Positions 3,001 to 43,368 of a stretch of 64,000 bases of DNA are shown here, piece after piece. The stretch lies in assembly GCA_958009085.1 (NCBI GenBank), contig OY253686.1, forward strand, positions 248,001 through 312,000, in the 5' to 3' direction. How positions within the stretch are numbered: the first letter of the stretch is position 1; each line of letters opens with the position of its first letter. Source of the DNA: Protoeuglena noctilucae. Taxonomy: Eukaryota. The notes under the pieces are model-generated. The model was not told the origin of the DNA. It made no database searches and worked only from the letters and a program-made list of their open reading frames with translations. Both the position numbers and the translations under genes were made by a program.

Positions 3001-3315
3001 TTTGTGGGGGTGCGAGGGGGGTGAGGGACGTGCTGGGGTAGGAGGTGAGGGATGGGTGGGCTTTGGGGGCGCAGAGGGGGATGAGGAGTGTGCTGGGGTA
3101 AGGGTGACAGGGGGCAGCGTCTTGGCACGCAGCACTGTCTCTCTGACCCTTGCTTTTCCTCTGAACCATGACGCATCACCACCCACCCCCTCTCCCTCCC
3201 CTTTCCGCAGTTGATTGAGAAGGAGTCGAAGGTCAACCTGTCGGAGAAGGCCCAGAAGAAGCTCCAGGCGGGGCTGGAGCGCATCCGGAGGGGGGAGCAC
3301 GACGTCTACATGTGA
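1..3315 (+). CDS. HYDG: [FeFe]-hydrogenase H-cluster radical SAM maturase HydG (5'-partial, about 9 exons in window)
   Basis: Spliced exons give IYGNRIVLFAPLYLANHCMNDCQYC (CX3CX2C radical SAM motif), FQETYH, GVGVLFGL, PHTISVPRMRP, LRVAVPYTGMILSTRE and the C-terminal CTACYR...FCHPN (CX2CX22C). Stop TGA at 3313-3315. The frame is open from the window start. Confidence 0.96.
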
Positions 3316-4297: not shown

Positions 4298-7017
4298 TCA
4301 GGGCTGGGGCACCTGAGGGAAAGGAGAGGGTGGCAGCGAGTGTGGCACGCAGTAATAGTGGCCGAGCAAAACTTGCGCCCCGAGCTCATGCCCCATGCCG
4401 CATCCCATCCCCAACGCGCCCCTCGCCTGCATGACTTGCGCCCTCATCCCACCACTCATCCCATTCCCAGCGCGCCCCTCACCTGCATGACTTGCACCCA
4501 CCCTCACCCCCACTGTCCTGCGCCCCTCGCCTGCATGATTTGCGCCCTGAGCTCGGGCCGTATGAGCCCCTGCCTCTCGATGTGGACGGCCACGAACTTA
4601 AGGAAGGAGACCTGCTCTGCCGAGTCGAGCATCACAAAAGTGTCGAAGAGTCGGTTGACGTTGGGGAGGAGCACAAAGGTCTTGAGGTACACGTGCACGA
4701 AGATGCCCATGATGATCTGGCAGTCCATGCGGTCTGGGGACGGGCGAGGAAGACATGGCGTCGGTAATAGGGGCAATAGGAATGGTTGGGCTGAGTGATT
4801 TGAGCTGCAGAAGCTTCTGATACATGCAGCAACTCGATCCTTTGCCTTGCTCCCACCGACTCGCATGTCGCCTCCCATTCCACCCTCACCTGTCATGCCA
4901 CCTCTTGCACACTCCAGACCATTCTTTGCTAGACGGAATCGATCAAGGCAGCAACTCAATCCTCGTCTCAACCACATCCGCATATTGAATCCCATCGCAC
5001 CCTCACCCGTCATGCCCCCGTGCCCGGGGATCGAGTCCCCGAAGTCCTTCACCCCGAACGCCCGCTTGAAACCGCTGGCGAAGAACCCACCAAAAGGGGC
5101 GATGAGGGACGCGAAGAGAGATACGGCGACGGCGTGGAGCTGGATGGGGACGATGGTGGCGCTGAGGGTAGGGGGTGAGGGCGGTGGTGGTGGAAAAGTC
5201 GTGGGCGAGCAAAATATGATATGGGTCAGGATGGCATGATGATTGGCGATCGCGCAAATTTAACAATAATAAGTAATATTTGAACCTATGATGTATATTT
5301 GTACCAATAATTATGGGTGAATATTTATTGTACATAATGTTTTTAGTAAATTTATCACTGAAAATAACGACCAACTCCTCACCTGAGCGACATGGCCCTG
5401 GCCGAGAGCCACGTGGGCATGAGCTTGCCGAAGAGGGCGGCGATGTCGCGGGTGAGTGGGATGTAGTGGACGACGTCCTTGGCCGTGACCAGGATGGGCT
5501 GGTAGATGAGGGAGCGGGTGCAGTGGAGGGGGCCGAAGACTGCGGGAGCACAGAGGGTGCGGGGGTGAGGGTGGCACACGTGGCGGTGGGGCACATGAGC
5601 CAGTGGCGCGTCATGCAAGCGCACAGTTGGTGTTATACATACCTAATCAGTTATCAAAAATGTATATATTATTTATTGATATCATCAATAATAATTGCTC
5701 CTCGTCACACCTGTGAGGTCGTCCCTGGGGCACACGAGCCAGTCGTACTGGGAGAGCCACTTGGAGAGGAACCACGACACGGCCACGGTGCTGAGGGCCC
5801 CGCCGACGAAGCCCTCCCACGTCTTGGAGGGCGACAGCTGCGGGGGTGGAAATGGAAGCGGCGATGGGTTTAAGTTACTGACCATTTACAAAATTATGAT
5901 AAGTGCTTACAAGCACCTCGGCAGCTCGGCAAGAAAACAAGATACTTGTTATTCCCTAAATAATCCGCACCAATGCTCGCCTTGATGAGGGGCGTGCGGC
6001 CCCAGAGGACCCCGAAGAAGTACGCGAAGGTGTCATTGATCATGATGAGGATGGCCGGGAGTAGGAACCAGACGATGCCGCCCTCGAAGAGCGACGAGAC
6101 GATGAGGGAGGAGGGGATAAAGGTGCACAGGAGCACCATGTGCGTCCACGCGAAGTTCATAAAGTCGCCCATCGACTGCCCGGGCTCCAGGTGGAGCACG
6201 AACGAGATGACGCCGGCGATGTAGGCCATGAAAGACCTGTCGAAGAGAGGAAAACGCATGCGATGAGGTCAGCGGAGCAGCGGGGGAGCGAGCGGGACGC
6301 GAAGAGAGCGCAGCGGTGTTCGCGACTCGCATGAGGGCGTGGTACTTGAGCGCGAGCTTGATGACGTGCGTGAGGAGCCAGTCCGAGTTAAGCACGACGA
6401 CCTCCACCATCAGGTTCCGGCGTATGTAGCGGCCGTAGAGGTAGAAAGCCGCGGTCCAAAAGAAGAGCCACTGGTGCCACCAGAAGCTGGGCTTGTAGTC
6501 CGCGGCGCTCTTCGTGCGCTGAACCTCAAAAATCTCCTGAAGAGGAGACGAGCGAAGCAGGGGAGTGCGACGCATGCGGGCGAACTGTGAAGCGCGAAGG
6601 GTCGCTAGCGCGTGCGACCCTCGCAAAGCCCCGGGAGATGCGCGCTCACCCTCGCGATGATGACTTGAAAGGCGAGGAGCATGACCCAGAGGAAGACGTG
6701 GCCGCCGTAGACGGTGAGGGCGAGTCCCACGGCCATGACGACCGACGACACCACGCGGGTGCGCATCTTGGTCAGGATCTTCTGCCATTTGCTGCCGCCG
6801 TCCGGAGCGACCCGACGGGAGTCCCTGGCGCCTGCGGGGACCGCGGCGCTGGCTCGGGGTCGACGCGCGGGACGGGCACGGCCCCGCAGGCTAACCGCTA
6901 GGGAATGCGGGCGGCCGCGGGAGCGGATCGGGCACAGGGCAGATGATTCAGCGATATCACGAGTGGTAGAGCGGCGAGCGCACCTCTGCCGGGGGACCCG
7001 TCCCTCCCCTTCGCCAT
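4298..7017 (-). CDS. CDS: Phosphatidate cytidylyltransferase (CDP-diacylglycerol synthase), eukaryotic type
   Basis: Exons give [68 protein letters not shown]. The first and last exons are approximate. Confidence 0.93.
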
Positions 7018-7489
7018 GGCCGGCCCGCACCCACTGTTGCACCAGAGAGCGTCCCTACGGCGCCTGGAGGCGTCGCGCGCCGGCCAAGCGCGCCGTAGCC
7101 GAGGTTCTGTGGAGATGCAGAAACAGCGCAACGAAGATTTCTGCCGGATGTGCGAGCGAATGGACGCAGAAGGACGCAGAGACAAAGACGCGGAGGGGCC
7201 CTCGCCTGGCGCGCCCCGTGTCCCACAACCCAGGCGATTGCGAGGGCGCGTTCTAGATGCGTGACGGGTGCGATTAAGGAGCCCTTGGAGCGTGTATCTG
7301 GGTCAGCAGACCCTGCGTTGGTAGCGCGCAGGGTGAGAAGACGGGTGTAGGGGCAGGGAAGCTTCAACGGAGTTCGCGGCGTGTCTCTTTGCGTATGTTC
7401 AACAGGTCAGACCTAGTACTTGTCGAATCGTCGCCCAATCGCTTCGGGTGTTGCCCAGCGCCAGACACAGTCGCAGCCCATGCCTGAAG

Positions 7490-7856: not shown

Positions 7857-10800
7857 TCACGCTCGACATCCACTCGTAGAACCCTTCCCACAGTTAGATA
7901 TGTTGCAGCCGATGTGTTGGAGACTTCCAGAGATGCACCACAGGCCGTAAAGCTTGCAGCCCTTGATCTTGACGTCCCGCACTTCAGCGTGCCCGCCCTC
8001 TTGGCAGCACACCCCACGTTTGGACTTCGCGATGCTGCCGCCCCGTACAACCGCTTTCCCCTGGCGGAGGCTTAACACACCGCTATCCTTGCATCCCGTG
8101 ATGGTCACGTTTTGCATGTCAGCGTGCCCGCCCTCTTGGCAGCACACCCCACGTTTGGACTTCGCGATGCTGCCGCCCCGCACAACCGCTTTCCCCTGGC
8201 GGAGGCTTAACACACCGCTATCCTTGCATCCCGTGATGGTCACGTTTTGCATGTCAGCGTGCCCGCCCTCTTGACAGCACACCCCATCTTCGGTCTCGGC
8301 AATGCTACCGCCCCGCACCACCACCTGGCTTCCCTGGCCGTGGCTGAACACACCGCTCTCCTTGCAGCCCGTGATCATCACGTGCCACACCTCCGCATAC
8401 CCGCCCTCTTGACAGGACACCCCGTGTTATGCGGACCCCACAATGCTGCCACCCTCAATGATGACATTGCTCCCCTGACCGTGACAAAACACCGCAGACC
8501 TAGGGGCATCGCTTACTTTCACGTTCTTCAGCAAAACCGAGCCGCCCTTCTCGCAGTGTATACCCGTCCCCACCACCGTTACCTCCACCAGTCGGATCTC
8601 CCCCCCCCCATGCTTGCAAAGCGCGTCCTTTGCCAATGTCAGGGCTCCGTACCCTTAACATCCCGTTCCGCACGGTCACCACCTTGCCCGACCCAGCCAC
8701 CACCTTCGTTCTCAGCTCCACCTCATTCCCCCCCAGATCCGCCACCTGCCCCGTGTCCACAGCTTCTAGCAACTGTTCCTCCGTCTGAACAGCCTTCACA
8801 GGTCCGCTGCTCTTATCCTTAATTGGTACTGCAGAGAGAAGACACGAGCAGTGGATAGAGTTAGAAACTCTCCCATCGCCCGATAGACGTCAGAGCGCCT
8901 GTACCCTCGAGCGAAGCACTCACTGTGAATGTTTTCGTCTGCTGCCGTCTCGAGGTCGCTCCTTGCCAGCATGTGCCCCAAACCACGCCCGTCCAGGATT
9001 GCCTGGACCTCCTTCTTCTTACCCCGCACCAGCCTCCTCAGTGCTTGGCGCCGCAGGACGCTCCCAAAATTCGTCTTCCCCGCCCATACTTGCACCGCAG
9101 CCAGCAGACCCTGGGCACGCAAATGCCCCATGGCGTTCAGCCATGCACTCCACGCTTTGCTCGCCTCGTAAGCAGGACGGGTGCCTGCAGGACGTGGCTG
9201 AAGAGCGACAGCACTCTCGGGTACGGGCAAATCTGGATCGTCCATAGCTCGTCTTAGGGTCCTGAGGTTGACCAGGAGCCTAGGTGCACCTGAGGGCTTA
9301 GGACTCCCTCCTTCCGTGCTCTGACCCGCAGCCTCCCACTGCGCCTGCAGCACGCCGTTGGCCTCCCGTTCCGACAGCAACACCACGCCATCAGAAAGCA
9401 GCAGCAGGGCGTCGGGAATTTGGAGGAACTGAATTTCCATACATATATCATGGTCATAACTCTTTTGTACGCATTGCACAAAATTTTTGGTCACGAACAC
9501 CCCCACTGGCCATGGCATAGTTCCCAGGTTCACGTCGCTCGAAGTCACCCAGCTGGCCAGTTCTGCCAAAGAAATGGTCCAGCCCACCAGTTTCTGCGAG
9601 GATAGGATGAAACACAATCTGGCCCTGCACAGTGCACTGGCGGCATGCCATGCACTGCTGCTGCCTCCTGCTTACCTCGATATCCTTCGCGGACGTCACG
9701 GAGAGCGCTATTTTGTAATCCTCCCAATCACTCTCCTCAACTGGCTCCATCCGCGGAATCTGCTCAGCACAGAACCACGCGGGAGCGGTTTAGCTGCGCA
9801 TTCTTCCAAGAGTCCCTCAACAGCTGCTGCGGCCAATCCATGAGCATGGCTACTCGAGCAATAAACTTTTGATTCTCAGTACAAGCACTCCACCTTCCAT
9901 GCCACACCTGCTCCTCTTTCTCTTTCTGCGTTTGATTCTCCGTCGCCAACTCACGCTCGTGTTGCTCATCGTGCCTTCCTGTTAAGAGCACCTTCACCCC
10001 CCTGCCCATCCCATTCCCCTTCTCCTCGATACTCGACACCACAGAGTCCCACTCCCCATAAGTAAATCCCCTCGCCTGCTTCACCCTCTCTGCCAGCGCA
10101 TCCGGCACATTCTTCTCCTCCACCGCCCTACCGTACATCTTCTCAAGCCCCACCACGTCATTAAGCAACGCCTGTTTCGGATCAGCGCGCGATCGAGCAT
10201 ATTGTATTCCCTGCTGGGCCCAGTCCAGGATTCCACGCTCCATGGACGCTGCTGTGTTGCGCACCACCCACTCCAGCACATCCTTAGAAGACACCTCCCC
10301 CGCGTCGCCATCACCAGGCTGCACCCGGCACTCGCGAACTCGCTGTTCGACCTCCGGGGTCCCCGCCAGCAACACACGCTGCCCCCGGTCCAGCTGCCGC
10401 ATGCGTCCGGCCGCCTGCACCAGCTTGTCCCGGCACATGCCTGGGCCGAGCGTCAGCAGCGCCTTAGCATCCGGCCGCAACCGCTTGTCCACGCCTCGGC
10501 ACCTCGCCTCGTCAAACACCACGAACGTGTCATGCTCTGCCACCGCGGACCACCCGACGTCATCGCACCGCCCGTCCAGCTCCAGGATGCGCCATGTGCC
10601 CCGTTTCTGATCGAAGAAGCAAACACCATCTAGGCGCTGACCCTGATCACGGTCTTGCACATTCTTCAGCTCCTCCACCAATGCCTTTGCCACTTGGAAG
10701 CTGTTCGAGCCAGCAAGGAGTGCCCCCGCGTCGATTAGGGCGTGCACCCTCCTTGACACCGCCAGAGACAGCACTTCCTCCCAGTCAGCCTTCACGGACA

Positions 10801-13800
10801 CATATTCCGCTTTGCTCAGAAGGTGCAGCATCTTGCCGTCCGTGGCAGCAGCTGCGTTATCTGCGACGGGCTTCAATGTCAGTTGAATTGGAAGCAGGCT
10901 TTTGTTGTCCATGGTACCTGCGCAGATATGAAAGGAAATAGGCAACAGTTATAGGTGTCACTGCGTCATCTGTACCCTCAGAGCTCACCCGCTGCACACC
11001 GCCCCTCACCAGAGAACCCGACGATGGTGCTCGTCCTGTTAGCATGGTTGCCCTCCCCCTGGGGCACGTGTGCTAGATCCCACCCCGTGGCCTCAATGTG
11101 CCTGGGATAGTGCTGAATTTCCCTTGAAAGCAGGCACGATTGCAGCCAGAAGCCCACGGTCCGCATGTTCCTGCCAAAGACCTTGTGCAGCGAATCCATT
11201 ATCTCCTCGTTGCTCGGGTCCAGCGATCTCACATCGTCCAGCTTGTCCCACGTAGTTTTATCCACAATGTCTTCGTCCACGACACCTTCGGCCAGTTCCA
11301 GCCACTCCTTGTACTCTGCCTCCTGCTCACTCTGCCCCTTCGACAGCAACTTTGACACTGCCTCCCTCATCTCAAACCGGGATAGCCCGTCGTTGAAGTA
11401 CGACAGGAATGTGAGGAAGATGGCCGTATCATGGTGCGCAAACTCGCTTCGGTCGCTTGGGGTGTCGCACGCCCGGAAGGGCACTGCCACCTTCGTGCGC
11501 TTTTTCTGCCCCCTTCTATCTACACCGAAGTCGACGTTGACCCGCAAGCTAAGGCAGTGGAATGCCACGCCGTGACCCAGAAGACCCCGCAGCAGCAGCA
11601 CCTGGTCCTTGGCCGTTTCATCCAGATTGAGGCCATCAAGAATCTCATCTATCCCTCTAGAAACGTTTGTCACGGCCTGAACCAGATTTTCCCTCTGAGT
11701 CACCTTGGGAGCAATCATCCGGCTCGTGTTGCGGGGTGGTTTGGAAATTAGCTTGGTCGCGACTTCCTGTGCCAGTTTGGACCGCATCCCTCTCGGGGTG
11801 CCCGTGCTCAACCGGCAGCCGCTGAATGCTCCCGGAGGCGGCGGTTGTGCGGGGTGAATCCTGACCCCATCCAGCTCCTGCGACGAAAGCTCCTTTGACA
11901 AGACCTCCAGGACGGCCAAGGGCACCGAGAAGCGAACGGACGCGCTGGGTATATCCTTGTGAGACCCCATGGCGTATACCAGCTTGAAATTGTGCCTGAG
12001 TAACTCGTCGCACTCGTCCAGGATCTCGTGGAAGGGGAAGCCTTCCAGCATCTTAAGCGACTCCACCTCACTGCCGCCACCCAACTCGCAACCGCTGCTG
12101 GCCTGTGACTCGCTGCCTGACTTACTGCCACTGCCCGTCTTGCCGCCCCCTGTCTCCAGCATTACGCGTTTAAGAAGCATCGACTGTCGCGCGTCCTGGC
12201 CCATGAGCAGGACCCCACGCTCGTCACGGCAGCGCATGAGGATCGCCTTAAGCGTACCCAGGACCCGCTCGTCCACTTTCACATCTCGGTGGAAGGGTAG
12301 CACAAACACCTTGCGCTGCAGCACCCCACCAGATATGCTGCGGCGCAGGTGATCCCGAGCCTCGTTCAGCAGCGTCGGCAGCAGCGTCACGCGCACCACG
12401 TGGTCCCGCCTATCCGCCCAGTGCAGCGCCAGCATCGGCAGGATGACCCGCGTTTTGCCCTCGCCCACGTTGAGCTGGGCCAGCGCTCCGGAGTGGTCCA
12501 TAAGGTGCTTGGCAGTACGGTATTGCACTTGCCTAATCTGTAGGCGGTTCTCTACCTCAAACACCAACCAAAGGGGGTGCTCGCATGCCGTCCATTCCCG
12601 CCGCACTGCCAGCTCCCGCGCCGCCTCCACCTCAGCATGTACGTCTCCTTTCGAGTGCGCAACTAGGGCCACCTTCACCCGGTTCAGTCGATCCTCTAGG
12701 ACACACAGCTGCGCCCACACGACCGCGCCCTCCCGCAGCGCATCAGTCGCCGTGGTCAGATATGGGTTAGTGGCACCAACCCAGGCACGGTCCGCCAGCA
12801 CCCGCAGGAGGTCAGGTGCAGCTGGGGCCGGCATCACGCCAGCAGCCACGCGCATCGTATGACCAGCCGCGCACCTGTCTTTCGGCTCGTACCTCAGCCC
12901 GTCCAACAACCACTTTTCCATCTTTTCCCTCTTATCCTTGACCTCCTTCAGCACCTCGTCCACCTTGTCGTGGGCCTCATCAGACAGCCCATCGCGCACT
13001 GCTCCGTTGGTGTATTTCTGGAAGCTTTTCTGCAGGCAATTCCTCACATCCTTTTCAACCTCTGACAAGCCCTGGGCCTTGATCGGGAGCTCCCCCGCGA
13101 TGACCTTTCTCCGTTCCGTCAGCCTTGCCAGCTCTTTCTCCTTCGCCTGCACCCAGTTCGTGATGACCGGGTACTCTTCCGTTTCCTGCACGGTCGCCGG
13201 CAAGGCCACGCCACTGTATGGCCCAGCTTGTTTCGCCAGGATGCGGAGCTCCTCAACTGACGTCAGCATCTGCCGCACGGGAAGCCGCCCCGTGCGCATC
13301 AGCTGCATGTACTGGCCCGCTGCGTTCACGTTTACCTCCGGCAAAGAGGAGGGCTCTTGCTCGGCCGTCAAGAGACCCATTTGGACGTGCATGGACTGCA
13401 GCTGGCGGGAGCTGGAGGCGAGGTCCTCAGAGAGCAGGGCGAGGGCCGGTGCACCCATGGAGTGCTTCTGCAGAGTCATCAGATGGCCAGAAGCATCTAG
13501 CGGCAGCGGCTGGATACCCCAGCTCTGCCGCAGCAGCGCAAGTGCGGCATCTGCCCCCGTCTGACCCGTGCTCTTGTCTGGCAGCCGTGTGCCTGTCGCT
13601 GCGAACAGTGCCGCTAGCTGCAGCTGCCCTGTGTCAGATGCTGCCCGAAGCCACCCAAACCGGGCATGCTCGTCAAATCGCTGCATGTGGACCCACTCGT
13701 CGCATTTCTTCGACAGCAACAGCACAGTGCTGTCTCCCCGGCCCTGTACACTGCCGCTTGGCATGAGCACGATGCGCTCCGCAGACTCCGCCGGCACGGC

Positions 13801-16800
13801 CTCAAGTACAAGGTACTGCCGGAACCCCACCAGCTGCTCTAGTTGCTGGCACGAGGCCAGGCGGTGCGCAGTGTGGCTCCGGGACTGGAGGGACCCGTCA
13901 TCGCAAAGCCAAAACTCCAGGCCGCTGCGCGGCAAATGGAAAACCACGCGCTCGTTGCCTTCCTGTGACACTATCCGCACGATCGTGTGAATGAACTGCC
14001 ACCGCTCAAGGCGCTCCAGCACCCGCAGGGCACCCAGCCCCGTGGGCACCAGCCGGTCGCAGAGGCCCGACAGCGTCCCGGCTAAGCCGAGCAGCTCGCG
14101 CCACTGCTTGCCCCGGAGGTGCTGTGGTACAGCGTAGAGGCAGCATGGTCGGGAACCGCCGCCCGCACGATTGCCGCCATTGGCCCCCTGGACGACACCC
14201 AGGAATTCCACCGACCGGTCGAAGCAGTCGACGTCCTCTCCGCACCTCCGCAACACCAGCGCGCCACCGTCCGCGCTCAGCCAGTGCGCGTGCATGCGCC
14301 GCAGTCGCTCAGGCAGCGTGGTGGTCGGGCACCACGCACACTCCTCGTCTTGCCCGGGGTCCAGCAACCGCAACACGCTGGCCCCCTTCCTCCCCAGCTC
14401 CACCTCCTCCACGTGCAGCTCCTCTCCCACCCGTCGGAATCGGTAGACCAGGCACCCCGCTATCGGCTTTACCGTCTCGAACCACCCGTCCACCCCAGCC
14501 TGCGCCACCTCAAAGTTCCTGGCTTGGAAGACCCGCTGGTAGAGCCGGTGATCACGCACCTCTGCCGGCAGCATCGACGGCGGCAAGCCGTTCCGCAGCG
14601 CCATCCCCGTCGCCAGGTTGAGCGAGTAGAGGTTGCCGTCGTGCTCCGCCTCAACGCACGTCGTGGGGTCGCTCCCAGTGTGCAGCCAACCCCATTGCAG
14701 GGCATGAGGCGCCTGCGTGAATACTGCCCGCAAGGCTGCCGTCGCCAGCTCGTCCAGGTGCCTCCCCGCCGCGCTGAGCACGTCCGCCACGCGACCCGCC
14801 ATGGCCACCAGCGCCTGGACCTCCAGGACCTCCACCTGCTCCTTAAGTTGCTTGGCCTCCGCTTGGGTCTTGGTCTTGTCGTCGGCTTGCAGGTGCACGG
14901 CCTCGAGAGACGACCGGGCCTGCCGCAGGCACGCCAGTTGCGTGATCGCGTGTTGGGCGTCTTCGAACTCCAGCGGGCCGTTCGAGTAGCAGAGGACCGC
15001 GTAGGCGTGATAAGACGCCTTCCGCGCCCGCAGAGACACGAGGACATCCTCCTGCGTCTTTTGCTCCACCTCCGCGCCCATGCACTCCGCCCACTCCCGT
15101 GCCGCCCTCGCCAGCTGGCGTGCCACTTTCACCGCCCCCTTGTTGTAGCCCGCCAGGTACGACGTGAGTTCCCCCAGTAGCGCCAGGGACGACGCTTCCG
15201 ATGGCTTCTTCGCCACCTCCTCCGCCAGGTCCTTCAGCACCTGCACCAGCGCCGCCCACGAGCTATGCTCGGGTGACCCCTCAAAGGCGTCCGTCATCCA
15301 CGATCGCCGGACACGCCCGCCCTCCACCAATAGCTCCCCCACATGGTAGAGCGCCTGCCGCAGCAGCACCCCAACCGCGGGGTGGCCAAGGGGCAGGGTG
15401 CGGTCAGCCAGGGCCGTAAGCAACTTGCGATATTGGGTAGCCGGGTACGCCCGCAGGCCGCACAGCGCCAGGAACGAGGGCTTGGACCGCAGCGCCCACA
15501 GCTGCTGAGATGCTGGGCCTTCCTCGGGGAGCTCGGTGAGCAGGTCCTGCCTTGCCAAGCCCTCGTTGCCCCGGGAGAACGGAGTATGCTCCGCGCCGCC
15601 CTGCTCCATGGCCCAGTTCAGCTGCTCGAATTCTTCAGGCAGAACCTCGGTGTTGGCACGCACAACCACGTCTCTAGGCACCCGAAAAGGATTGAAGTAC
15701 GTGCACCCCTGCCCCTCATCACTCCCGTCGCCGCTCCCTTCCCACACCATCTGAAGTTCGAACGTGTCAGGGTACCACACGCCGTCCGCCTTGCTGCGAT
15801 AGTCCTCGACCTTTTTCGGCCAAATCTTCTTCGGTTGCTTCGCATTCAGAGCCCGAAGTCGGATTCTGCTTTCGGTGCAAGCGTCCGTCGAGGTCGTATG
15901 GACCGACGTAGCCGACAGGTGCTTGGTATAGTGGTCAGCCCACATGCTGACCTTCGTGTCACCCTCCACCATGTTGAGCTTGTCTTTCAGCTTGTCACTC
16001 CACTTCACAGGAAGCAGCATTTGCTGGGCCATGACAGACAGCCTTGCCAGGCACCGAAGGGGCTCCTTCATGTGCAAAAAGAAGAGGACCTGTGGCAGGG
16101 GAGCATGTGATGGGTCACATGAGGGCCAGGAGTGCACGGATGGCAGGGACAGCAGAGAATGCAAGACAGTCACCTGGCGCATCTTGGCCTCGTCTTTCGG
16201 CAGAGGTTGCACCACCGGAGGCGGCGGCTTGTTCGCCTCGTCGAGCTCCGTTTCGATGGCAGAGACCCTGACCTCTGCGCTCTTCACCTTCTTTTTGGCC
16301 TCGTTATATAGGCTCTTCCACTCTTGATAATCGGAGGACGTGTCGACCTTTGGCTTCTTGCTGCTGACCTCCTCCAACTTCTTGCGCCTCGTCTCCAGAG
16401 TCGATTCTTCTTTCTGCAGCTTTTGCTCCAGCTCCTGCACCTCGGCCTGCTTCCTCTGGACAGCCATCCAGTGCGCATCCACCCTGGCCTGAGCGTCGGT
16501 AACCTCCATCTTCATCAGCTCGCGCATGTCCTCGTCCTGAGCCGCAAAGGCATCTGCCATTGCCATCGTCGGCGCCTGGTCGCTCAGATGGAAGAGCCGG
16601 CCACCCCGGCGTTCCGAACAGCTCTTCAGGTACTCTGCCACCTTTACCGCCGCGTCCTGTGCGGCCTTGGATCCTAGCACCATGTGGCCTACGTCTTCCC
16701 AGTTGAGCGGGACCGAGTACGACCCCACCAGTTTGTACTTCTCTTCCGCCTTGACCACGCTGTGCGTCAGGCAGAAGGCGATCCAGACCACCAGCCTGGC

Positions 16801-19800
16801 CCGCCCGCGCAGCTCCACGCCCAGCAGGGGACCCTTAGCCTTCTCCTCAACCTTCTCCTCAAGCTGCGATGCCAAGCGGCGGTACTCGTCGACCGCTTTG
16901 TCGAGGGTCGGCAGGTCGGCCAGCGTCAGTCCGTGGCTGCTGGGCTCGAAGCCCCGTGCGGCGACTGCGAAGAATGCAGCCTCCGCCTGACGCACTCGTG
17001 ATGCCTCGCCCACGTACGTCTCGTGTTCGTCAGTCCTGACGCAGGGCTGGCTAATGAATTTTGCGATGGTAGGCACCTTAGCGCCCCCAGCGAGGGCAGG
17101 TAGGAGCTCCACGTTTGAACGTGCTTTGTGCCACGCGCCGTCCATGCCCTGTCTGACCGGCGCCGCCTGCTCCGCTGGGGCGTCCAGGCAGAAGTCCTCG
17201 CAGGTAGCCACCGCCGCTGCGTTACCCTGCTTCGGCAGCATCGATTTGTCCTGGAGATCCTTGACCTTTGCCTCCCAGGCGCTGTGCAGGCTCTCGGTGA
17301 CTTTCCCCGCCAACGCAGCGAATCCCCTCATGTCCGCCCACGGCTTCTCCGCCAGGGCCGCCCCCAGCTCCACCGCCATCTCCAGTCGAACCATCGCAAG
17401 GTCGACGTCGTCGTGGTCCAGCGGCCCCAACGGACTCGAGGGCTGGGCTTGCAGCGCCGCCAGCCACAGGTGGAAGAAGGCCACGGCCGCCTCGAACGCG
17501 CAGGACTGGTCCTTATCCCCTTCTCTCAAGACAAGGAACTGCAAGCAGTGGACTGCACCCCAGTCAGCGCCCGCTGTCAATAGTAAAGCCAGTCACGCTA
17601 CGTCTGGACATTGGGTGGCCGCAGGTCGCACCTTTACCACCTCCCGTGCCACCGGCCATTCCAGGGAAGTTGCGTCCTTGCCGTGCGTAGCAAAGTCAGG
17701 AAAGCCGCCCATGTAAGAAATGACCTCATTTCCCGTTATCTTTCCCCCAGTCGTCTCGATGCGCTTCCTGGCCGCAACGATGCAGGCCTTGACAAACCCC
17801 GCTGTCTTCGAAGCACGAACGCGTGCGTCAGTCAGCAGCGCTTTGACCTTATTTTGAGCTTTAGGAAGTTCTTTTTCGAACATTTCCCACTCGTGCCCTG
17901 CGACGCTGCCGGCATACCCTGAGAAGCCCCCATCGCTCCTGGCTCCATGCCTGCGCTGCGCCCCGCTCCAGCACCTGGGTGGGCAGCGATAGTTCCGGAC
18001 TCCATGTTTGCACCAACGAACACATGAAGCGATTCTCGACTGATCAAACAGGCCTCCCAACGAGACTCACCCTTCCACGATGTGCTCCCATCGATCTGCT
18101 GCGACGACCCATATGTTCTCTGAGCCCGCCGTGTACGGGGCGGAAGTGACCACGATTGCACAGCCGTAGTCCGGAAGGAACTGCGCGTCCTTCAGCGCTT
18201 GTACAGCTCTTTTTGCCGACGCTGCGATATCACCGAAAGCCTTTGGGATGCCGGTCTGTCTCACAGCTCTGACCACCTCGCCGGGTAGGTCGCACATGTT
18301 GGTCGATTGGTCTTCAGCGAGGTATAAGAGAAGATGCGTGGAAAAAAACTTGGCCATTTTGGAATTTCCCTCGCTGCTGAACCCGAAATCTCGCTGCAGC
18401 TTGTCACCCCCTGCAAGAAATTAGTTTATTTTTTGATAGTTTATTTTTGTTTATTTTTATATTTTTTATTTTTTGTAAAATACAGAAGTGTAAAATCATG
18501 CATGCATTGATTACACAGCTGGCATCTTCTCATGGCAATATCAACATTGCATAAACTCACTCGCCAGGGGGTCCAGGCGGCTGCCTGTAATCATGATCAT
18601 GTCGCTCTGCAGCATGAGCAGCAGTTGCAGGTCGCTCCCCATGATGTCGTGCCGATCCCATCTCGGTACGCCGTCGTCTGTCCCTTGAGCGTCGGGGAAA
18701 GCGCGTTGGGAGGGATTCTGGCGCTTTCCAGCCCAACCCTCCCCACACGGGACGTCCCATAGCAACTTTTTCTCGGGATTGTTGCAAGACTGAGTGGTGA
18801 TCGTGACGGTAGCCTGAAGGGGCTGATGGTCGAAGACAGCTGCACAGTAGTCCTTGACGACCTCGACCTCGAGCATGACGTGGCTCCCGTTTGGCACACA
18901 CACGGCGCCGATGAAGTCGATGACTCCCTGGGTGCGCTTGGCGCTTGTCGTTCTGCTGCCCGGCTCGTACACGGGAATCTGAACCCTCTCCCACATCTTC
19001 ACGACCTTGGAGGGAAGCCAGAGACACGCCTCATCCAGCTTGACGTTCGCATCGCAGCCGATAAGGACGGGCAGCTGGAACGCGTCCGCCAGCAGGGAGA
19101 AGACCTCGCATGCTTTCGTCCATAACCTGCAAGCAGTAAATATATTAAGATATTACCTTCATTTATTTATTGTTATGCTGTTAATTTTATCTAAAACTGT
19201 ATAAATTATAGTTTTGTTGCAAAAAATGTTGCTACAACATTTATAATAATTGTCATTTTTTGAACGGGTGACAAACCTGCGCATGAGAGCACGGGACATT
19301 AGGTGTGCTCACCGATACTTGAGTCGGTTGTTCATCCCAGTGTGGTAGCCATGGTACGACACGGCCAAGACTGGGCCCTGATTAGTTCCGGAGTTCTCCG
19401 GATTGGCGAGAGGGGTGCACCGGACCACGAGCATTCTTTTGAAAAGGAGCTTGTACACCTCATGGTGCTCGTCCACCAGCTTATGCTTGATCCTCTTATG
19501 ACTCTCACGGACCTCCATCATCTTGCACCAATCCTTCCTTGCCATTACTGCCAGGCAATTCGTGCCCTTGTTCTTGACTTCTTCTTTCTTGTATATTGCT
19601 TGGAAATGTTCCCGAAGCTTCCTGAGCACTTCTTTCTTGTGCATCACTTTGCTCCGCACCTCTTGCAGCATAATGACGTGGGGATCGACATCATCCACAA
19701 GATCGACGGTCTTCTTGTATGAATTCGAGGTCTTCCCTGATTTCGGTCCCACATTGGCAGACAGAATTCTGAAGCGCGGGGGTTCTCGAAGGGACAGACC

Positions 19801-19830
19801 CGCCAGTCCACGGCTGACAGCCTCCTCCAT
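7857..19830 (-). CDS. Giant multidomain protein: EEP nuclease/phosphatase + DUF3638/DUF3645 helicase-like ATPase + right-handed beta-helix repeats (beta-helix tail disrupted)
   Basis: EEP motifs ILSANV, MLQEV, SYHG, IGCDAN, VIDF, FDHQP. Core motifs QLNVGEGKT, ILDECDE, AVPFRACDTPSDRSEF, GFS|GT, FDEARCRGVD, QAAGRMRQL. Tail repeats GGSI..GVCCQEGG. Phase-compatible GT-AG introns link the pieces (19127-19312, 18411-18560, 17975-18070, 17539-17631, ~10918-11009, 8829-8923, among others). The start codon is approximate. Confidence 0.75.
7984..8391 (-). repeat. 135-bp (45-aa) coding tandem repeat in the beta-helix domain
   Basis: Units begin at 7984, 8119 and 8254. The first two are nearly identical at nucleotide level and the third is diverged. 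Confidence 0.9.
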
Positions 19831-20827
19831 GATTCCACGCTCGTCCCACCCGCGACCTGCATGTGCAGGCATGTCATTAATGGGCGGTGGACATAATCGA
19901 CAAGACCGCTTGCAGGTTAGCAATCGTTTGTGCTGGGGCATCTCACACAATGGCCATGGCCGCGCCATGCAACAACCGGGGGCTTAGATTGTCAGATTAC
20001 TCTGCGAAAAGCATCCCAAAACCAGCCGCACGCCCGCGTAGCCCGAGCGAGACAGACCACGCAGCGCCATTGTGCTCCCTCACCGTGTCCACGGTGGTAC
20101 GCGCCGGGCCCCGAGGAGGCTCACCGCCGTCGCAGCTGCGGGAAGTCAACTAAAGATCGTCGCGGGACGAAGGGTTTGCGCACCCGCAGGCTCTGGAAAC
20201 CCCTGACATGTCGTGAAATGAGCGCATGCTACATGCTCGCAGCGGCGACCGAGTTGAGGTACAAAGGAACGAACAGTGCAGAAGATGCAACAAACATCAA
20301 GCAGACATGCTGCTCGCTCGCGCCGCGCGAGCGAGAGGGGCGTCGCGGCGGTCAATGCGTGCTCTCTTGCCGCCCAGTCGTCCGCCCTTATCTCACCCGC
20401 CCGACGGCCGTCGCTCCCTCTCGTGCCGCACGCACTCCAATGAGACTCGATACTTGCGCAGCGACGCCCGAACGGGCCCTAAGTCACGAGCCTCGCCCCA
20501 GAGGGATGCTCGCTTCTTTCCTGCGCACCTCGCGGCTTTGGCGCTCTCTGCGCACTCACTAGTGCATAGGAGTGACGTATGCAGCAGAAAATTGGCACAT
20601 GCGCACCCACACGCCGGCGGCTGGCGCCGGCTGGCCCTTGTGAGAAACCAGGGCATTGCAAAGGACCCCGCCTTCGCTTTGCTCGACCGCGCATGGTGCG
20701 CATCGTCGCCACCTGAATGCAGCGGCGCGCCATGATCAGGCTGTGAGCGGGGGTTGCAGCGCGGTGCCATGCGTCAAGCCGGCACCGTCACACGCGCTGC
20801 GTTGCAAGCCTGCCGCCCTCGTCTTAA

Positions 20828-20924: not shown

Positions 20925-23527
20925 CTACCCGCCCCACCTCCCCCTCAGCAGGGACTGCCAGTCCGCCTGCACCTTCTTGGCCTGCTCGGCCTCCTCCAGA
21001 GCACGATACGACGCGCAGCACGCGTGACAGGGGCCGTGGAGGCACGTCGCGCCCGCTGTGTCGCTCTGTGTGCGACGTGGAGACGCTGTGAAGTGCCGCT
21101 CTCAGGCATGCAGTTGCAGTGCCGACATGACACCCGCAGAGGCCCTCACCTGGCACACCGTGGTGGGAGGGGGCCACACCCTGGGGTCCGAGGCGCACAC
21201 CCGCACCAAGTCACGCGCCGTGCGACCATTATCGTCCTCCAGCGTCGCGTCGCCGTAGCCGTCCGTGAGCAGCCACTGCAGCGCGTTGCCCGCGCTCTCG
21301 CCCCTGCGGGGAAACACAGGGGACCACAGGGGCTGGGATGCGACGTGTGAGGCGAGCAAGCGGTTACGGTCCCACGCGACCAACCATCAGCCGTGGCTGG
21401 CACGCACCCGCAGGAGTGGTTGTCGTTGACCCAGCACATGGATACAAGCATAGTGGCCGTGAAGCCCGCGAGGTTCTTGACGTTCGGGTTGCCGCCCTTC
21501 CCCACCACCGCCTTCAGCGGCTCCGGCCCACCCCACGCCACCACCGCCGCCGCCCTGCGACCAACACCAGGACATCTCCATCAAGTGTGCTGCATTGTTC
21601 TGTTCGTATGCAAACACAGATAGAAAGCCCAACTGTACTACCTATAGACACCCACACCGCCCTTTTCGCACCTGGCTGCGGGAGTCCAGCCGCCAAACCC
21701 AGCCTTGTTGACGTCAGCTCCCAGCTTCAGCAGCGCTTGGATGGTCGGCATGGCCTTCCCCGCGTCCTGCAGGGCAGGGAGAGGGAGCAGCTGTGTTCGA
21801 ATTGTCATGCTGACTAGGAGTGCAAGACACGACCCCCAGCAGCGCAACCATTGCGTCGACTCGCCTGAGGGCCTGAATGCGCCTCCAGTGCCCAGAACAG
21901 CGCCGTCTCCTGCTGCTCCGGCGCGTCCATGTCCGGCTGGTCCGGGTCTATCCCAAAGTCATCCACCAGCAGCGTGAGCATGTCCGGCCATGCCGACGCC
22001 TTGTCTGGCGGGCCGTGCTTCCACATCTCCGCCACTGCAGGATCGGAGACATATCGTAGTATATAATTGCATACAATCATGCCCTGGTGAACAGGCCTAA
22101 TGGCATGGCCACCCTCTGTCGATGCGGGCGCTCAGTCGCTCACCCAGGTGAATGGCCCCGAAGTTGCCAATCATGCACTCCCCGCACTCCAAATACTCCT
22201 TCGGCGACTCTTCCACTCGGCACCCGATGCAACTGCGGCCGCACGCGTCAGGCACAGCATGTCCGTTCAGCACGATCGAGCGCTCCCCGACTTGCGGCCC
22301 AGCCCTTGCCCACACTCGCACCTGGTGACGTCCTGCCCCAGCCCTCGCAGCGCCACGCGCAGCCTAGCGACGTCGCCTGCCAGAATGGCGTCTCGCACCG
22401 CCCGCCTCAGCTCTTGGGACGGCCCCGTGTCGCGCGTCAGAGCCGCCACGGGGATCGCGGAGCGGCCCAGCGCTTGCGTGAAGGGGTCCTCCAGCGCCGC
22501 CTGCGATTGCATGGAGATAGGCTTGTTTTCCAGGCTTAGTTACCCATGACACGCCTGCGGCAAACCCATGCCAGAGCCCCACCTACCAACAGCAGCTGCG
22601 CGCGTCAGAGAACAATGGGCTACAGCAAGTGCACCAAAACGTGCTGTGCTCGGTATGCCCCCCCCTGGGACTCGCCTCGTAGGCCGCAGCCGAGGGCTCC
22701 GGTGGCGGCCTGGCCGGCTCGACTTGGCTCTGGGCGCAGACCCGCTCGCAGCACTCCTTGCAGTTGTTGGACTGGAACCCGAAGCTCGCGCAGGCGGTCC
22801 GGGAGAGCCAGCAGAAGGAGCGGCACTGGGCTGCGACGGCCTCGGCCCGGGGCATCGCAGCGTGGAACGGCACGGTGGGGAAGGTGACGTTTGGAAAGAG
22901 GTCCGCGGTGCACTCGAGAGACCCTACGCGGTCCGGGTCCTTCGCCTCCGCCTCTCTCTCCGCCTGGGCTGCCTTCTGCTGTTGCTGGAGCAGAGGGTTG
23001 AAGCCGGATAGACCCGAGACGACGCCGTCCGCGGGACCAGCATCGCCGTCGGCCGGGGCGGGGCTGGTCGTGGGAAGTGGAGCGGCGGTGGTGGGGGTCG
23101 GGGATGCTGGGGCGGGCGTCTGGGCGGCGGGAGGTGGGGGCGCGGGCGCGGTGGCCGGTGCAGGGCCGACCGAGTTCCAGCCTTGCAGGTCGTCGTCGGC
23201 TGGCGACCCTTCCAGATTGCGGGATGGGTGCGGGGGCAGGAGAGCGTGGCTGAGGGTGGGGCGGACGGCCGCGCACTTGAGAGGGTCATGCGATGGCGAG
23301 GGCGCTCGTGAGGCCAGGCAGTGCAGGGCTGCGGGGAGGCCGGGAGGGGCTGTTCTGCTACGCGATCGGTACACTTAAAGATCAGAAACAGGTCCTCGCC
23401 AAAAGCACGGCTTGCAGACTCAGGATAGGCGCTGGGATGGGCGAGGACGGGGTGACTCTGCCGACTCGCCTGGTAGGATGCTCAGCGCCAGGAGCAGAGC
23501 AAGGGCAGCGCGAGAAGCAGAGGACAT
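20925..23527 (-). CDS. Cys-rich ankyrin-repeat protein A with putative signal peptide
   Basis: MSSASRAALALLLALSILPG; Pro/Thr-rich linker; QCRSFCW..ACAS..CKECCERVC; ankyrin-like LLKLGADVNKAGFGGWTP, GGNPNVKNLAGFTA and EDDNGRTARDL; C-terminal CLHGPCHACC. Collinear with the paralog at 28174-31291. Confidence 0.7.
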
Positions 23528-35229: not shown

Positions 35230-37332
35230 TCATGCCGAGGCCGCGGGCCCCGCGAAAGCGAAGAAGCGCCTCTGCAGGTTGCACCACCACGAGTCCCGGC
35301 GGTCAACAGCGTCGAACGGCACGTAGTTGCGCTCGCGGTCGAAGACGTGCAGCTCCGCGGCGATGGTGCGGAAGAGGCGCCAGTTGAACTTGGCCTCCGT
35401 CATGTACTCGCCCCTGCGGAGGTGGGAGGATGGCAACGGCAGTGACGCTGAAGTGGTGCGGGGTTACTGTCACTGCCGGGTGCTTGCTGGGAAGAGCAAC
35501 CAGCTATGAAAAGCAGCTTCAAATATCAAAAACGAGCATCGAAAAAGCCCACGGACAGTTTCACAGGCCGCCCTCTGCCTCACCAGTTCTGTCGCAGGGA
35601 CTCGTTGGCCTTGCGGAGGTTGTACCAGGGGATCTTGGTGGACACGTGGTGGGGCACGTGGACGCTGATGTCGTGGGTCAGGAACTCGACCCACCCGGGA
35701 AACTCGCAGTGCACCGTGCCTCCCAGCTGCGCCTTGGCCGCATCCCAGTCATCGTCGCGGAAAGGGATGTGGGGCGCCGTGTGGTGGATGACCGTGAAGG
35801 CCGACATCCAGAAGTGGTAGCCCAGCCAGGGCATGAGCCAGTACTTGACCCAGCCCCAGACGCCGAAGTTGGCCACGATCAGCGGGAACGCCACCGCCAT
35901 GAAGGCAAACACGGCCGCCAGCGAGACGATCACGCGGGGCTTCTGCTGCTCCGTGTAGAGGTCGAGGTTGAAGTGCCAGATGAGCTGGTGGCCCACCGAG
36001 GCCCTGCGGTGGGCGGGTAAGCTCACGGGTTGGCACTACGCATCGGCAGACGGCACGCAGTAACACATCGGCATGTCTGGAAGAGACAGGACCCTCACCA
36101 ATACTTGAGGGGCGTGCCGAGGAAGAACTTGAAGAAGGCGCCGGCAACCGGGTTCCAGTTCTTGATCTCGTCGGGCATCACGGGGTGCCACGCTGGGAGC
36201 GGAGGGGACAGGGGCACGCATGGGTGAGGCAAAGAGGGTGAGGCGAGGAGGTGGCGAGGGGTCATCGTGGATGGCACAGCCACAGCCATGCACTTGGTGA
36301 TAGAGAGCCTCCTAACCGAGAAGCAGTGCGGCAGGGCGCAATGGCGACTGACAGCCAGCGTGCGCCACGGTGTGGATTGATGGTTGAGTCGTGTGTAAGC
36401 CTCACCGGTGTCGACGACCAGCTTGTTGGTGAAGGCGTGGTGCTGGTTGTGCTTGATCCTCCAGGGCTCGAAGGGGTAGATGAGCGGGGCGAACATGAGC
36501 GTGCCCACGATGTCTTCGACCAGCTTGTTGCGGTGGAAGCTGCGGTGGCCGCAGTCGTGGCCCACCACGAAAAAGCCCGTGAAGGCGGTGCCGGCAATGA
36601 ACCAGGAGAGGGGGAGGAGGTACCAGGGAGTGACCTGCAAGGGCGATGGGTCGAGCGTGCGGGATGCATGGGGTGCAGCTGCCACCCCTGCAAACCCCGT
36701 CAGCCACCGGCGCCACTCGCGTGTCGTTCGGCATTTGCGATGTCGAGGCAATGGGAAGCGGCATCGACTGAATCTATGCCCCCCGTGGAAGCGTGCCACG
36801 ACGCACATTGCTTCATCTCATGAGGCCGGGCAGGCGCAGTTCTCACCGAAATGAGCCACAGGGAGGCGGCCATGGACACGATGGAGGTCGCCACGGCGCG
36901 CCACGCCTTGCCGTGGTCCAACTCAAAGACCTCGGCCGGCAGGGAGCGCTGCACGTCGCCGAGCGTCACGCTGTCCGGGACCGGCTTGCCGATCTTATCG
37001 TAGCCGTACTTGGCAGCGATCGCCTGGCGCTCCTCATCGGACATCAGCTGGATGCTGCGGGGTAGGAGGCGCGGGCCACAGTAGGGCACCGCTGGGCACC
37101 GCTGGGCCAGCAGCCGGAGACGGGCGGGTGCACGGCCGGATCGCGCGTCGGGTGAGGCGCTCGGGAAAGATCAGACAGCGGCTGGCACGCACGTCGGCCG
37201 GGGCAACGCGCGCGGCCGGCGCGAGGCACTCACTCGACGGGAGGCAGGGGTGCCGCCGCGGCCTGCGCGCGCACGGCGGGGGCGATGCGAGCGCGGAGGG
37301 GGAGAGCAGAGACGCGGGATGCACATGCGCCT
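35230..37332 (-). CDS. FAD6: Plastid omega-6 fatty acid desaturase (first exon/start unresolved, lies further upstream)
   Basis: His boxes HDCGH, HNQHH and [32 protein letters not shown] and KIPWYNLR are typical of FAD6/DesA. Confidence 0.93.
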
Positions 37333-43168: not shown

Positions 43169-43368
43169 NNNNNNNNNNNNNNNNNNNNNNNNNNNNNNNN
43201 NNNNNNNNNNNNNNNNNNNNNNNNNNNNNNNNNNNNNNNNNNNNNNNNNNNNNNNNNNNNNNNNNNNNNNNNNNNNNNNNNNNNNNNNNNNNNNNNNNNN
43301 NNNNNNNNNNNNNNNNNNNNNNNNNNNNNNNNNNNNNNNNNNNNNNNNNNNNNNNNNNNNNNNNNNNN
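43169..43368. other. Assembly gap (200 N)
   Basis: Run of n characters. Confidence 1.

Follow-up and report, generated by a model that had tools for sequence, protein, structure and literature searches.

The minus strand of the window, the stretch of 64,000 nucleotides of Protoeuglena noctilucae DNA analysed in this work, hosts a gene of the DUF3638/DUF3645 family, plausibly enlarged at both ends. We assign a probability of about 0.55 to the notion that the locus is a single minus-strand transcription unit, made of a canonical DUF3638/DUF3645 giant protein and two lineage-specific additions. ORF pieces can be joined through GT-AG introns into one open frame, and the model built from the coordinates has 9 exons and encodes 3,462 aa; the earlier note, which had proposed a spliced protein of roughly 3,600 aa, is in this respect supported.

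A full-length giant ATPase of the DUF3638/DUF3645 family is encoded by the core gene, which lies on the minus strand at 8924-18410 and comprises exons 3-8 (model aa 380-3353). DUF3638 (PF12340; 2.7e-48, 164.7 bits versus a cutoff of 31) and DUF3645 (PF12359; 1.7e-13, 50.1 bits versus a cutoff of 25) were both identified by Pfam in the 2,204-aa ORF 10978-17592, and 103 homologs of nearly the same length were found, chiefly in green algae, oomycetes and fungi. Membership in the family and the structure of exons 3-8 are plain from the alignments: these exons are collinear with the homologs through every junction, and HSPs extend from model aa ~393-460 to 3352. Family homology starts in exon 3 (18071-18410). 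Intron 3 (17975-18070; 96 nt, GTGAGT...CCCAG), with homolog alignment over the retained segment, leads to exon 4 (17632-17974), a piece of the family N-terminal domain which is covered by homolog alignment as well, and the junction at intron 4 (17539-17631; 93 nt, GTGCGA...TTGCAG) is crossed by it. Exon 5 (11010-17538; 2,176 aa), backed by Pfam, homologs, folds and Foldseek, is 29-37% identical to homologs across ~90% of the exon. Its product begins with a helical N-terminal region; then come a beta-rich central domain and a bundle of helices, followed by RecA-like domain 1 (DUF3638) and DUF3645. Intron 5 (10918-11009; 92 nt) falls inside the conserved GFSG/T.DN motif, and exon 6 (9908-10917) carries the second RecA-like region with motif VI. 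Intron 6 (9760-9907; 148 nt, GTGTGG...GAGCAG), exon 7 (9676-9759; 28 aa) and intron 7 (9594-9675; 82 nt, GTAAGC...TCGCAG) precede exon 8 (8924-9593), a conserved C-terminal region whose end is the canonical C-terminus of the family. Proteins of ~3,000 aa with the same invariant Walker A, Walker B, GFSGT.D and QAAGRMR are found in Edaphochlamys, Gonium, Tetrabaena, Mesostigma and Phytophthora, and fungal forms carry an additional N-terminal DUF6606.

The motifs described earlier are in place, with Walker A (GEGKT, 12451-12465) and Walker B (ILDECDE, 12004-12024) in exon 5, and motif VI (QAAGRMR, 10397-10417) in exon 6, and their columns are invariant or nearly so in the family. In alignments of 34 and 30 sequences motifs I, II, III and VI are conserved, the G,G,K and D,E,D residues being invariant, and GFSGT.D and QAAGRMR at least 90% conserved. 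The notion that the ATPase is helicase-like rather than of the STAND type is corroborated by these motifs, by weak DEAD matches in fungal homologs, and by the match of the family profile to MDA5 helicase domain 1 (E=0.0036); NACHT, NB-ARC and AP-ATPase all gave no Pfam match at E<=0.01. Structural comparisons lead in the same direction. The AlphaFold model of lobe 1 with its insert (pLDDT 83.8) retrieved MDA5, CSB, SecA and ALC1 by Foldseek with probability 0.99-1.00 and a best E of 8.5e-4, at a TM of only about 0.2. The core ATPase is two-lobed and of the SF2 helicase/SecA-like kind. MDA5, the CSB/ALC1 remodellers and SecA have the RecA-like fold and motifs I, II, III and VI in common with the core, but identity is only 10-14%, and the core differs by large family insertions (DUF3645) and by the unrelated domains of its N-terminal side, about 1,600 aa in all.

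The UniRef name of DUF3638/DUF3645 homologs is 'ubiquitinyl hydrolase 1'. No Cys is invariant among 34 sequences, the best being present in 28 of them, and the only invariant His is His1085 in exon 5; the Cys of the N-terminal 'YGCA' string occurs in 7 of 16 homologs. The model of exon-5 aa 900-1665 (pLDDT 83.1) gave no papain-like match in Foldseek, and was matched only by beta-propeller or solenoid scaffolds at a TM of about 0.1. A link to VTD deubiquitinases was dropped, the passages of PMC9741609 consulted for it dealing instead with Helitron proteins. NCBIfam gave no relevant match, and in the literature we found no functional study of DUF3638/DUF3645, only passing mentions, in 6 papers for DUF3638 and in 2 for DUF3645.

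The borders of the family fall inside the model. Residue 1 of 22 homologs projects to model aa 281-453, with a median of about 350, near Met380 (ATG 18357-18355, context caaaATGgc), which is likely the ancestral start codon, and which retains a strong start context. At the opposite side, 34 homologs reach model aa 3340-3352, 30 of them stopping within 12 residues of their own C-terminus, and this border coincides with the exon 8 donor (8924). The EEP-like and beta-helix exons, just beyond the borders, are aligned by none of 102 homologs, and neither PF03372 nor PF13229 was detected in 104 homologs (the 103 of near length and one longer), which confirms that the architecture is unusual. The single longer homolog, of 3,948 aa, carries PF06101. 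Both additions sit exactly outside the canonical family borders, and neighbouring but separate genes would give the same picture.

The same borders, the start context of Met380 and the absence of either added part from all 102 homologs are what one would expect if three neighbouring units occupied the locus, namely a small orphan gene of EEP-like type, made of exons 1-2 and encoding 367 aa up to a stop at 18541, an ordinary DUF3638/DUF3645 gene running, unspliced at its end, from ATG 18357 to the stop at 8796-8798, and a dead beta-helix fragment. According to this view, which is possible and which we hold in second place, the consensus sites 18560/18411 and 8923/8829 would occur by chance, or be rarely used. 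Unspliced, exon 2 is indeed closed by a frame stop at 18541-18543, and exon 8 by the stop at 8796-8798 after 43 extra codons. TGTAA and TATA-like strings, presumably algal signals, lie within 18411-18540, inside proposed intron 2, and also fit separate genes. Yet the stop of the EEP ORF and ATG 18357 are only 183 nt apart, a space that would have to accommodate a promoter together with the 3' UTR of one gene and the 5' UTR of the next, whereas coding regions elsewhere in the window are separated by about 1.1-1.3 kb.

Splice signals argue for the single unit. The EEP module is tied to the core by proposed intron 2 alone (18411-18560; 150 nt, GC 0.26, GTGAGT...TTGCAG, in phase). Among the splice sites of the gene, its donor and acceptor have the strongest consensus forms, which speaks against separate units. 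The earlier note had joined the fragments through phase-matched GT-AG introns. The consensus sites and matching phase of introns 18411-18560 and 8829-8923 were found as described; bare GT-AG pairs, by contrast, are poor evidence, since 20 in-phase pairs could join exon 2 to exon 3, of which one has consensus sites. Per nt of the window, GT[AG]AG occurs with a frequency of 0.0016 and TTGCAG with one of 0.00035; by our own arithmetic from these values, the chance of finding both intron 2 sites in phase is roughly 0.003. Intron 2 resembles in its AT-richness intron 1 (19127-19312; 186 nt, GC 0.31, GTGAGC...TTGCAG), which interrupts the EEP-like domain; even if the locus were split into three units, an intron of the same style would be required within that domain. 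No repeat element common to the AT-rich introns was found. Codon GC3 is 0.66 in exon 1 and 0.78 in exon 2, similar to the remaining gene (0.64-0.85).

We tentatively recognise upstream of the core an EEP-like N-terminal module, which is probably spliced to it. Exon 1 (19313-19830) is an open frame encoding the first half of the domain from ATG 19830-19828, further in-frame ATGs being present upstream within ORF 19309-19983; exon 2 (18561-19126) encodes the second half and a linker of ~70 aa. By eye, candidate motifs N, QE, H, G.D.N, D and DH follow each other in exons 1-2, in the order of the EEP consensus. The putative catalytic residues are Asn26 (19753-19755) and Glu57 (19660-19662) in exon 1, and Asp25/Asn27 (19045-19053), Asp70 (18916-18918) and Asp99-His100 (18826-18831) in exon 2. 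The EEP superfamily includes exonuclease III/APE1, DNase I, the L1 endonuclease, CCR4-type deadenylases and inositol 5-phosphatases, and a module of this type might act on DNA, RNA, lipid or inositol phosphate. The candidate module differs from the superfamily in the Lys/Glu-rich insert of its first half, and in the lack of a significant profile or structure match.

Motif order, language-model neighbours and co-folding speak for the EEP assignment made in the earlier note; profile and sequence searches with the exon halves do not. Among the language-model neighbours in the Atlas, 10 clusters with PF03372 (best score 0.91) were retrieved by exon 1, and clusters with PF03372 (24% of members, 0.92) and PF14529 (56%, 0.91) by exon 2, to be taken as leads only. 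When folded together, the two halves reached an ipSAE of 0.73, against 0.00 for the best control, a mark attained by 51 of 78 solved complexes and by 2 of 108 mismatched pairs, and one that halves of one domain tend to pass. The predicted interface has 167-176 contacts, with contact agreement of at least 89% over three runs and a partner pLDDT of at least 56, and involves residues 24-30 and 54-57 of chain 1, and 23-28, 70-72 and 97-100 of chain 2, thus including the putative catalytic residues. Intron 1 would be needed for the halves to form one domain. On the opposite side, Pfam searches with each half separately gave no relevant family at E<=10, and phmmer searches of the PDB no relevant match. 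With exon 1, phmmer against 1.84 billion representatives found 4 matches, the window's own ORF and three spurious bacterial repeat proteins. When exon 2 was compared with longer proteins, 0 of 619 candidates scored, and global alignment to a single E. coli exonuclease III sequence gave z=1.76, which has no significance. The clusters to which the ORFs of the window belong contain unspliced ORF calls only. Among viral contigs, neither of the two exons nor the beta-helix found a match. The lone weak metagenome-contig match met in the EEP hunt (L001) was discarded as an unrelated fungal-like locus adjoining a tRNA synthetase gene.

The second addition lies past the C-terminal border. Proposed intron 8 (8829-8923; 95 nt, GTGAGT...CTCTGCAG, in phase) would connect the core to a beta-helix exon. 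The ORF 7857-8426 matches Beta_helix (PF13229; 8.3e-14, 51.9 bits versus a cutoff of 25.9) and NosD (1.2e-08, 35.1 bits versus a cutoff of 23.6) in Pfam, Tandem Repeats Finder detects at 7984-8423 a tandem array of 3.2 copies of 135 nt, and the repeats match a phage tail-fibre beta-helix at E=1.8e-4. Within its ORF the beta-helix cap is preceded by no ATG, and the lack of its own start codon is at odds with an independent unit. The beta-helix recognised previously is supported by Pfam, but its frame is broken as assembled by two lesions that the earlier note had missed. A 1-nt (+1) frameshift somewhere within 8628-8654 separates the frame of the cap (ORF 8500-8889) from that of the repeats (ORF 8427-8654), and a TAA occurs in frame at 8427-8429 within the repeats, at a position where sister repeats have E or K. 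As a consequence the assembled frame ends at 8500. Exon 9 as assembled (8500-8828) encodes the N-terminal cap, the first coil and then out-of-frame residues up to the stop at 8500-8502, and the repeats past the TAA (7857-8426) are closed by the stop at 7857-7859. The breaks could be bridged by 118 and 276 bare GT-AG combinations, none of which has consensus splice sites of the type used by the gene. Introns of 55 nt or 270 nt were considered as a rescue and rejected, as they would delete or skip the clearly coding cap. With the supposed sensor broken, the effector/ATPase/sensor protein suggested in the earlier note is not encoded intact in the assembly. A pseudogene-like tail, with frameshift and stop, is also what the hypothesis of three neighbouring units predicts.

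Alternatively, frameshift and TAA could be errors or strain-specific lesions, and the normal allele would encode a protein of ~3,670 aa with a full beta-helix. The frameshift falls at short homopolymer runs; past the TAA, 189 codons are still open and follow the pattern of the repeats, with two 45-aa units among them identical; and a contig from an RNA library covers 8177-8332. Long open frames are, however, frequent by chance in DNA of 64% GC, and a contig of a DNA run, assembled independently, is identical over 8244-20400 (0 differences), both lesions included, though it perhaps comes from the same sample. An intact allele seems to us unlikely.

Transcripts were sought in 4 of 11 sequencing runs, including two marine metatranscriptomes and one DNA run; run X8 gave no matching contig. 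The two metatranscriptomes yielded 10 pieces, 9 short identical contigs and one chimeric record made of two 18-nt pieces. Contigs from the RNA libraries fall within 8177-8332, 12296-12556, 13526-13797, 14354-15670, 18127-18284 and 20304-20400, so that the gene is covered in portions of exon 3, exon 5 and the tail alone, and they may reflect DNA carry-over; the missing coverage of exons 1-2 is uninformative. None of the RNA-library contigs of the two metatranscriptomes bridges an intron, which counts in favour of three separate units.

In the model proposed for the single transcription unit, the upstream exon pair, gained in the lineage, would encode an EEP-type phosphodiesterase, divergent and Mg-dependent. 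These exons would have been joined through an AT-rich intron to the former 5' end of the gene, with retention of the old start as Met380, and, downstream, a PbH1/CASH-type beta-helix exon would have been attached by an intron whose position is precisely that of the former C-terminus. The ATP-driven SF2 motor may engage a polymer, a nucleic acid as first guess, or a polypeptide, as for SecA, as second, and may bring the EEP hydrolase of the N-terminus to this polymer, or license it, so that the polymer is cut or dephosphorylated. EEP identity and activity, the two fusion splices and the substrate are the steps that we infer. The beta-helix would be a former ligand-binding appendage, inactivated in the strain by the 1-nt frameshift and the nonsense codon; as a result, the present-day protein would consist of the EEP module, the core and a 109-aa stub.

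The earlier note had suggested that the gene could be a candidate immune-type system. On such a reading, of an immune-type or conflict system, the EEP nuclease would be the effector, the SF2 ATPase the switch and the beta-helix the sensor, and the gene would be one instance of a family with end domains swapped among paralogs. NLR/STAND receptors have on paper the same three-part layout of enzyme, NTPase and repeat solenoid; in the present gene the NTPase is SF2-like, not NACHT or NB-ARC, and the solenoid is broken. Paralogs have expanded in some algae (6 proteins were named in Edaphochlamys, 4 in Pleodorina and 4 in Mesostigma, some with adjacent locus tags), and N-terminal additions occasionally occur in homologs, an Asp protease domain in two from Mycena, and a weak ubiquitin-like match, below threshold, in another (P0018, E=0.019). 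Both observations are compatible with an immune role, and nothing more. Two reports, which would fit as well, mention a large DUF3638 gene family in microsporidia (PMC5423893) and, in Plasmodiophora, a DUF3638 gene with high polymorphism (bioRxiv 10.64898/2026.10.14.759018). Against it, the supposed sensor is broken at the locus, the neighbouring genes are housekeeping genes, and only 3 of 104 homologs carry a Pfam domain beyond those of the family, so that swapping of end domains is either rare or invisible to Pfam. We consider an immune function improbable.

Passages of PMC9741609 describe Helentron proteins in which Rep, helicase and AP-type endonuclease are parts of one polypeptide. As portrayed there, these proteins combine in one chain a helicase-type motor and an EEP-type endonuclease, as in the present model, but the endonuclease is C-terminal and accompanied by a Rep domain, whereas the EEP-like module is N-terminal, and Rep is missing, in the gene described here. 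The present locus further differs from Helentrons in lacking transposon features, in having housekeeping neighbours, and in containing spliceosomal introns. The Helentron helicase is of the SF1 Pif1-like type.

The DUF3638/DUF3645 family is very large, and spans green algae, oomycetes, fungi and other protists. Should the single-unit reading hold, the recruitment of a recognisable hydrolase head would be the first concrete hint of the target of the motor, and the locus would exemplify how a gene may grow by taking in neighbouring exons precisely where it formerly started and stopped, with one of these acquisitions already on the way to being lost. If the parts are separate genes, an ordinary family member lies beside an orphan gene. 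A far broader scenario, to which we give very little credit, is that DUF3638/DUF3645 giants are a eukaryote-wide, helicase-based platform with exchangeable enzyme heads and binding tails, and that this gene is a young, still evolving effector-motor-sensor fusion of conflict or immune type which has just lost its sensor in the strain. The heads cited for such a platform are the EEP nuclease here, the Asp protease of Mycena and, in one alga, a ubiquitin-like domain.

The DUF3638/DUF3645 gene lies in eukaryotic nuclear DNA (GC about 64%, exons short) among ordinary nuclear housekeeping genes, encoding biotin synthase (BATS, 575-3021), CDP-diglyceride synthase (CTP_transf_1, 5000-7054), a fatty-acid desaturase (FA_desaturase, 35583-36817), pyruvate dehydrogenase E1 (E1_dh, 40451-42023), a mitochondrial carrier (Mito_carr, 43950-44744) and a class II tRNA synthetase (tRNA-synt_2, 50680-52142). 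A 200-N assembly gap occupies 43169-43368. All coding pieces of the gene and of its additions are on the minus strand and, joined by their coordinates, form nine exons separated by eight GT-AG introns, with a single open frame of 3,462 codons and a stop at 8500-8502.

The core, encoded by exons 3-8 (8924-18410), is an intact and real member of a known but unstudied family of giant SF2-like ATPases. The ORF at 10978-17592 (2,204 aa) matches DUF3638 (2.7e-48) and DUF3645 (1.7e-13) in Pfam, and a search with exon 5 (11010-17538) at a threshold of E<=1e-3 retrieved 103 proteins, with lengths of 1,196-3,808 aa; identity across about 90% of the exon is 29-37% for the best of them. The set spans Chlamydomonadales, Parachlorella, Mesostigma, oomycetes, Chromera and fungi. 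Family alignments reveal invariant or near-invariant columns at Walker A (GEGKT), Walker B (DECDE), GFSG|T.DN, a motif interrupted by intron 5, and QAAGRMR. The ATPase had been described in the earlier note as helicase-like rather than STAND, and this description holds because of these motifs, of weak DEAD-box matches within the DUF3638 region of fungal homologs, of the match of the family profile to MDA5 helicase domain 1 (E=0.0036), and of the structural neighbours of the AlphaFold model of exon-5 residues 1600-2176 (pLDDT 83.8). These are MDA5, CSB, SecA and ALC1, found with probabilities of 0.99-1.00, a best E of 8.5e-4 and a TM of only about 0.2. In the model of residues 900-1665 (pLDDT 83.1), helical bundles come after a beta-rich domain; it returned no informative structural neighbour. 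Many homologs are labelled 'ubiquitinyl hydrolase 1' in UniRef. Cysteine conservation does not appear to support a deubiquitinase label, as no Cys is invariant among 34 family sequences, and the Cys of the N-terminal 'YGCA' motif is found in 7 of 16 homologs. A supposed link of this family to VTD deubiquitinases proved wrong, judging from passages of PMC9741609.

The borders of the family were mapped by comparing the spliced model with 102 homologs by blastp. No HSP from any of them falls in residues 1-361 (exons 1-2) or from residue 3360 onwards (exon 9). Residues 3340-3352 are reached by 34 homologs, and for 30 of these the C-terminus is then no more than 12 residues away; the family end point coincides with the donor of intron 8 (residue 3353). 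At the other side, residue 1 of the 22 homologs with an N-terminal HSP projects to model residues 281-453 (median about 350), next to the exon 2/3 junction (361/362) and to an internal methionine, Met380 (ATG at 18357-18355), which has a strong start context. In our reading of an ambiguous alignment, the motif directly following Met380 aligns with the N-terminal motif of the homologs. Since collinear homology supports every junction of exons 3-8, and given the homolog borders, these exons constitute the canonical gene; the EEP and beta-helix parts are located exactly outside of it.

The EEP module is split by intron 1 (19127-19312) into exon 1 (19313-19830) and exon 2 (18561-19126). The domain calls of the earlier note fared unequally in Pfam: DUF3638, DUF3645 and Beta_helix were matched, but nothing relevant was obtained with either EEP half, even at E<=10. 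Its EEP motifs do occur in the listed order in the translation, and fit what we take to be the consensus, but escape Pfam, phmmer searches of PDB with the halves, which gave no match, and a phmmer search with exon 1 of 1.84 billion representatives, which returned only the ORF of the window itself and three plainly spurious bacterial repeat proteins. A longer relative of exon 2 was not found, and global alignment of the EEP part to E. coli exonuclease III gave z=1.76. In separate ESM Atlas searches the neighbours of each half carried PF03372 or PF14529 (0.91-0.92); family-bearing matches of both halves all belong to one clan, and are leads only. The products of the two exons co-fold with an ipSAE of 0.73, the best of three controls scoring 0.00, and form 167-176 contacts with at least 89% agreement among three runs and a partner pLDDT of at least 56. 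Among solved complexes 51 of 78 come up to this mark, and among mismatched pairs 2 of 108; passing is expected for halves of one domain, and does not name the fold. The predicted interface coincides with the stretches that hold the putative catalytic residues, N26 and E57 in the first half and D25/N27, D70 and D99-H100 in the second. The co-folding result shows exons 1 and 2 as one globular domain, on which ground intron 1 is considered real. Codon GC3 is host-like in both exons, which probably encode an EEP-like hydrolase domain.

Whether this module is joined to the core hinges on intron 2 (18411-18560). Bare phase-matched GT-AG pairs are cheap evidence, since 20 combinations could connect exons 2 and 3. 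Only one carries the consensus of the gene, GTGAGT with TTGCAG; from the window frequencies of GT[AG]AG (0.0016 per nt) and TTGCAG (0.00035 per nt), we estimate the chance that the two would occur in phase inside the permitted intervals to be of the order of 0.003. Intron 2 is moreover AT-rich (GC 0.26), resembling intron 1 (0.31). Alternatively, module and core may be separate genes, as would fit the retention of the old start codon Met380, the lack of the EEP head in all homologs, the presence of TGTAA and TATA-like strings, presumably significant as signals, inside 18411-18540, and the failure of any RNA-library contig to bridge the intron. Yet two genes would have to share just 183 nt from the stop of the EEP ORF (18541) to the ATG at 18357, where flanking genes are about 1.1-1.3 kb off, and the sole consensus site pair would be a chance occurrence or seldom used. 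We favor fusion of the EEP module to the core, with a probability of roughly 60-70%. Very AT-rich segments (GC 0.26-0.35) in this 64% GC genome include, besides the two introns, 5201-5400 and 5640-5720 within the neighbouring cytidylyltransferase gene, another point in favor of the join; at least the first of these (5201-5385) has a minus-strand donor of the GTGAG type at its start, and no repeat element common to the four was found. Upstream of the EEP start codon, at a distance of about 1.3 kb, there is probably a neighbour gene, represented by coding-like minus-strand ORFs at 21105-21386, with an ankyrin-repeat-like stretch noticed by eye, and 22270-22539. The interval 20304-20400 is also covered by an RNA-library contig.

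The EEP-like head is probably a lineage-specific addition to a known family. DUF3638 is mentioned in PMC5423893 and bioRxiv 10.64898/2026.10.14.759018; all published mentions located, of DUF3638 in 6 papers and of DUF3645 in 2, are in passing, and the literature search did not find the EEP-DUF3638/DUF3645-beta-helix architecture in print. The immune-receptor reading of the fused protein put forward earlier is possible but of low probability. Among homologs, two Mycena proteins have an extra N-terminal aspartyl protease domain, full in P0095 (9.9e-68) and partial in P0087; P0018 may have an N-terminal ubiquitin-like domain, with a sub-threshold match to Dsc3_N (E=0.019), and P0108 (3,948 aa) contains PF06101.

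The beta-helix tail is decayed in this assembly. The proposed intron 8 (8829-8923, GTGAGT...CTCTGCAG) is in phase, and leads into a typical beta-helix N-terminal cap devoid of its own ATG. The repeats, among them a tandem array with 3.2 copies of a 135-nt unit, match Beta_helix (8.3e-14) and NosD (1.2e-08) in Pfam and, weakly, a phage tail-fibre beta-helix. Cap and repeats differ by a +1 frame shift somewhere in 8628-8654, and a TAA (8427-8429) stands at the position where sister repeats encode E or K. Consensus sites are absent from all 118 and 276 bare GT-AG bridges over these breaks. A contig from a DNA run, possibly of the same source sample, has zero differences over 8244-20400. In the assembly the protein stops at 8500 after a 109-aa stub, and the roughly 3,600 aa initially proposed would require read-through of both the frameshift and the TAA. 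At the tandem repeat in 7984-8148 the depth of DNA-run contigs is about twice that of the flanks (146.6 and 85 vs about 70), and the assembly contigs break, which is what two identical 135-nt units should cause.
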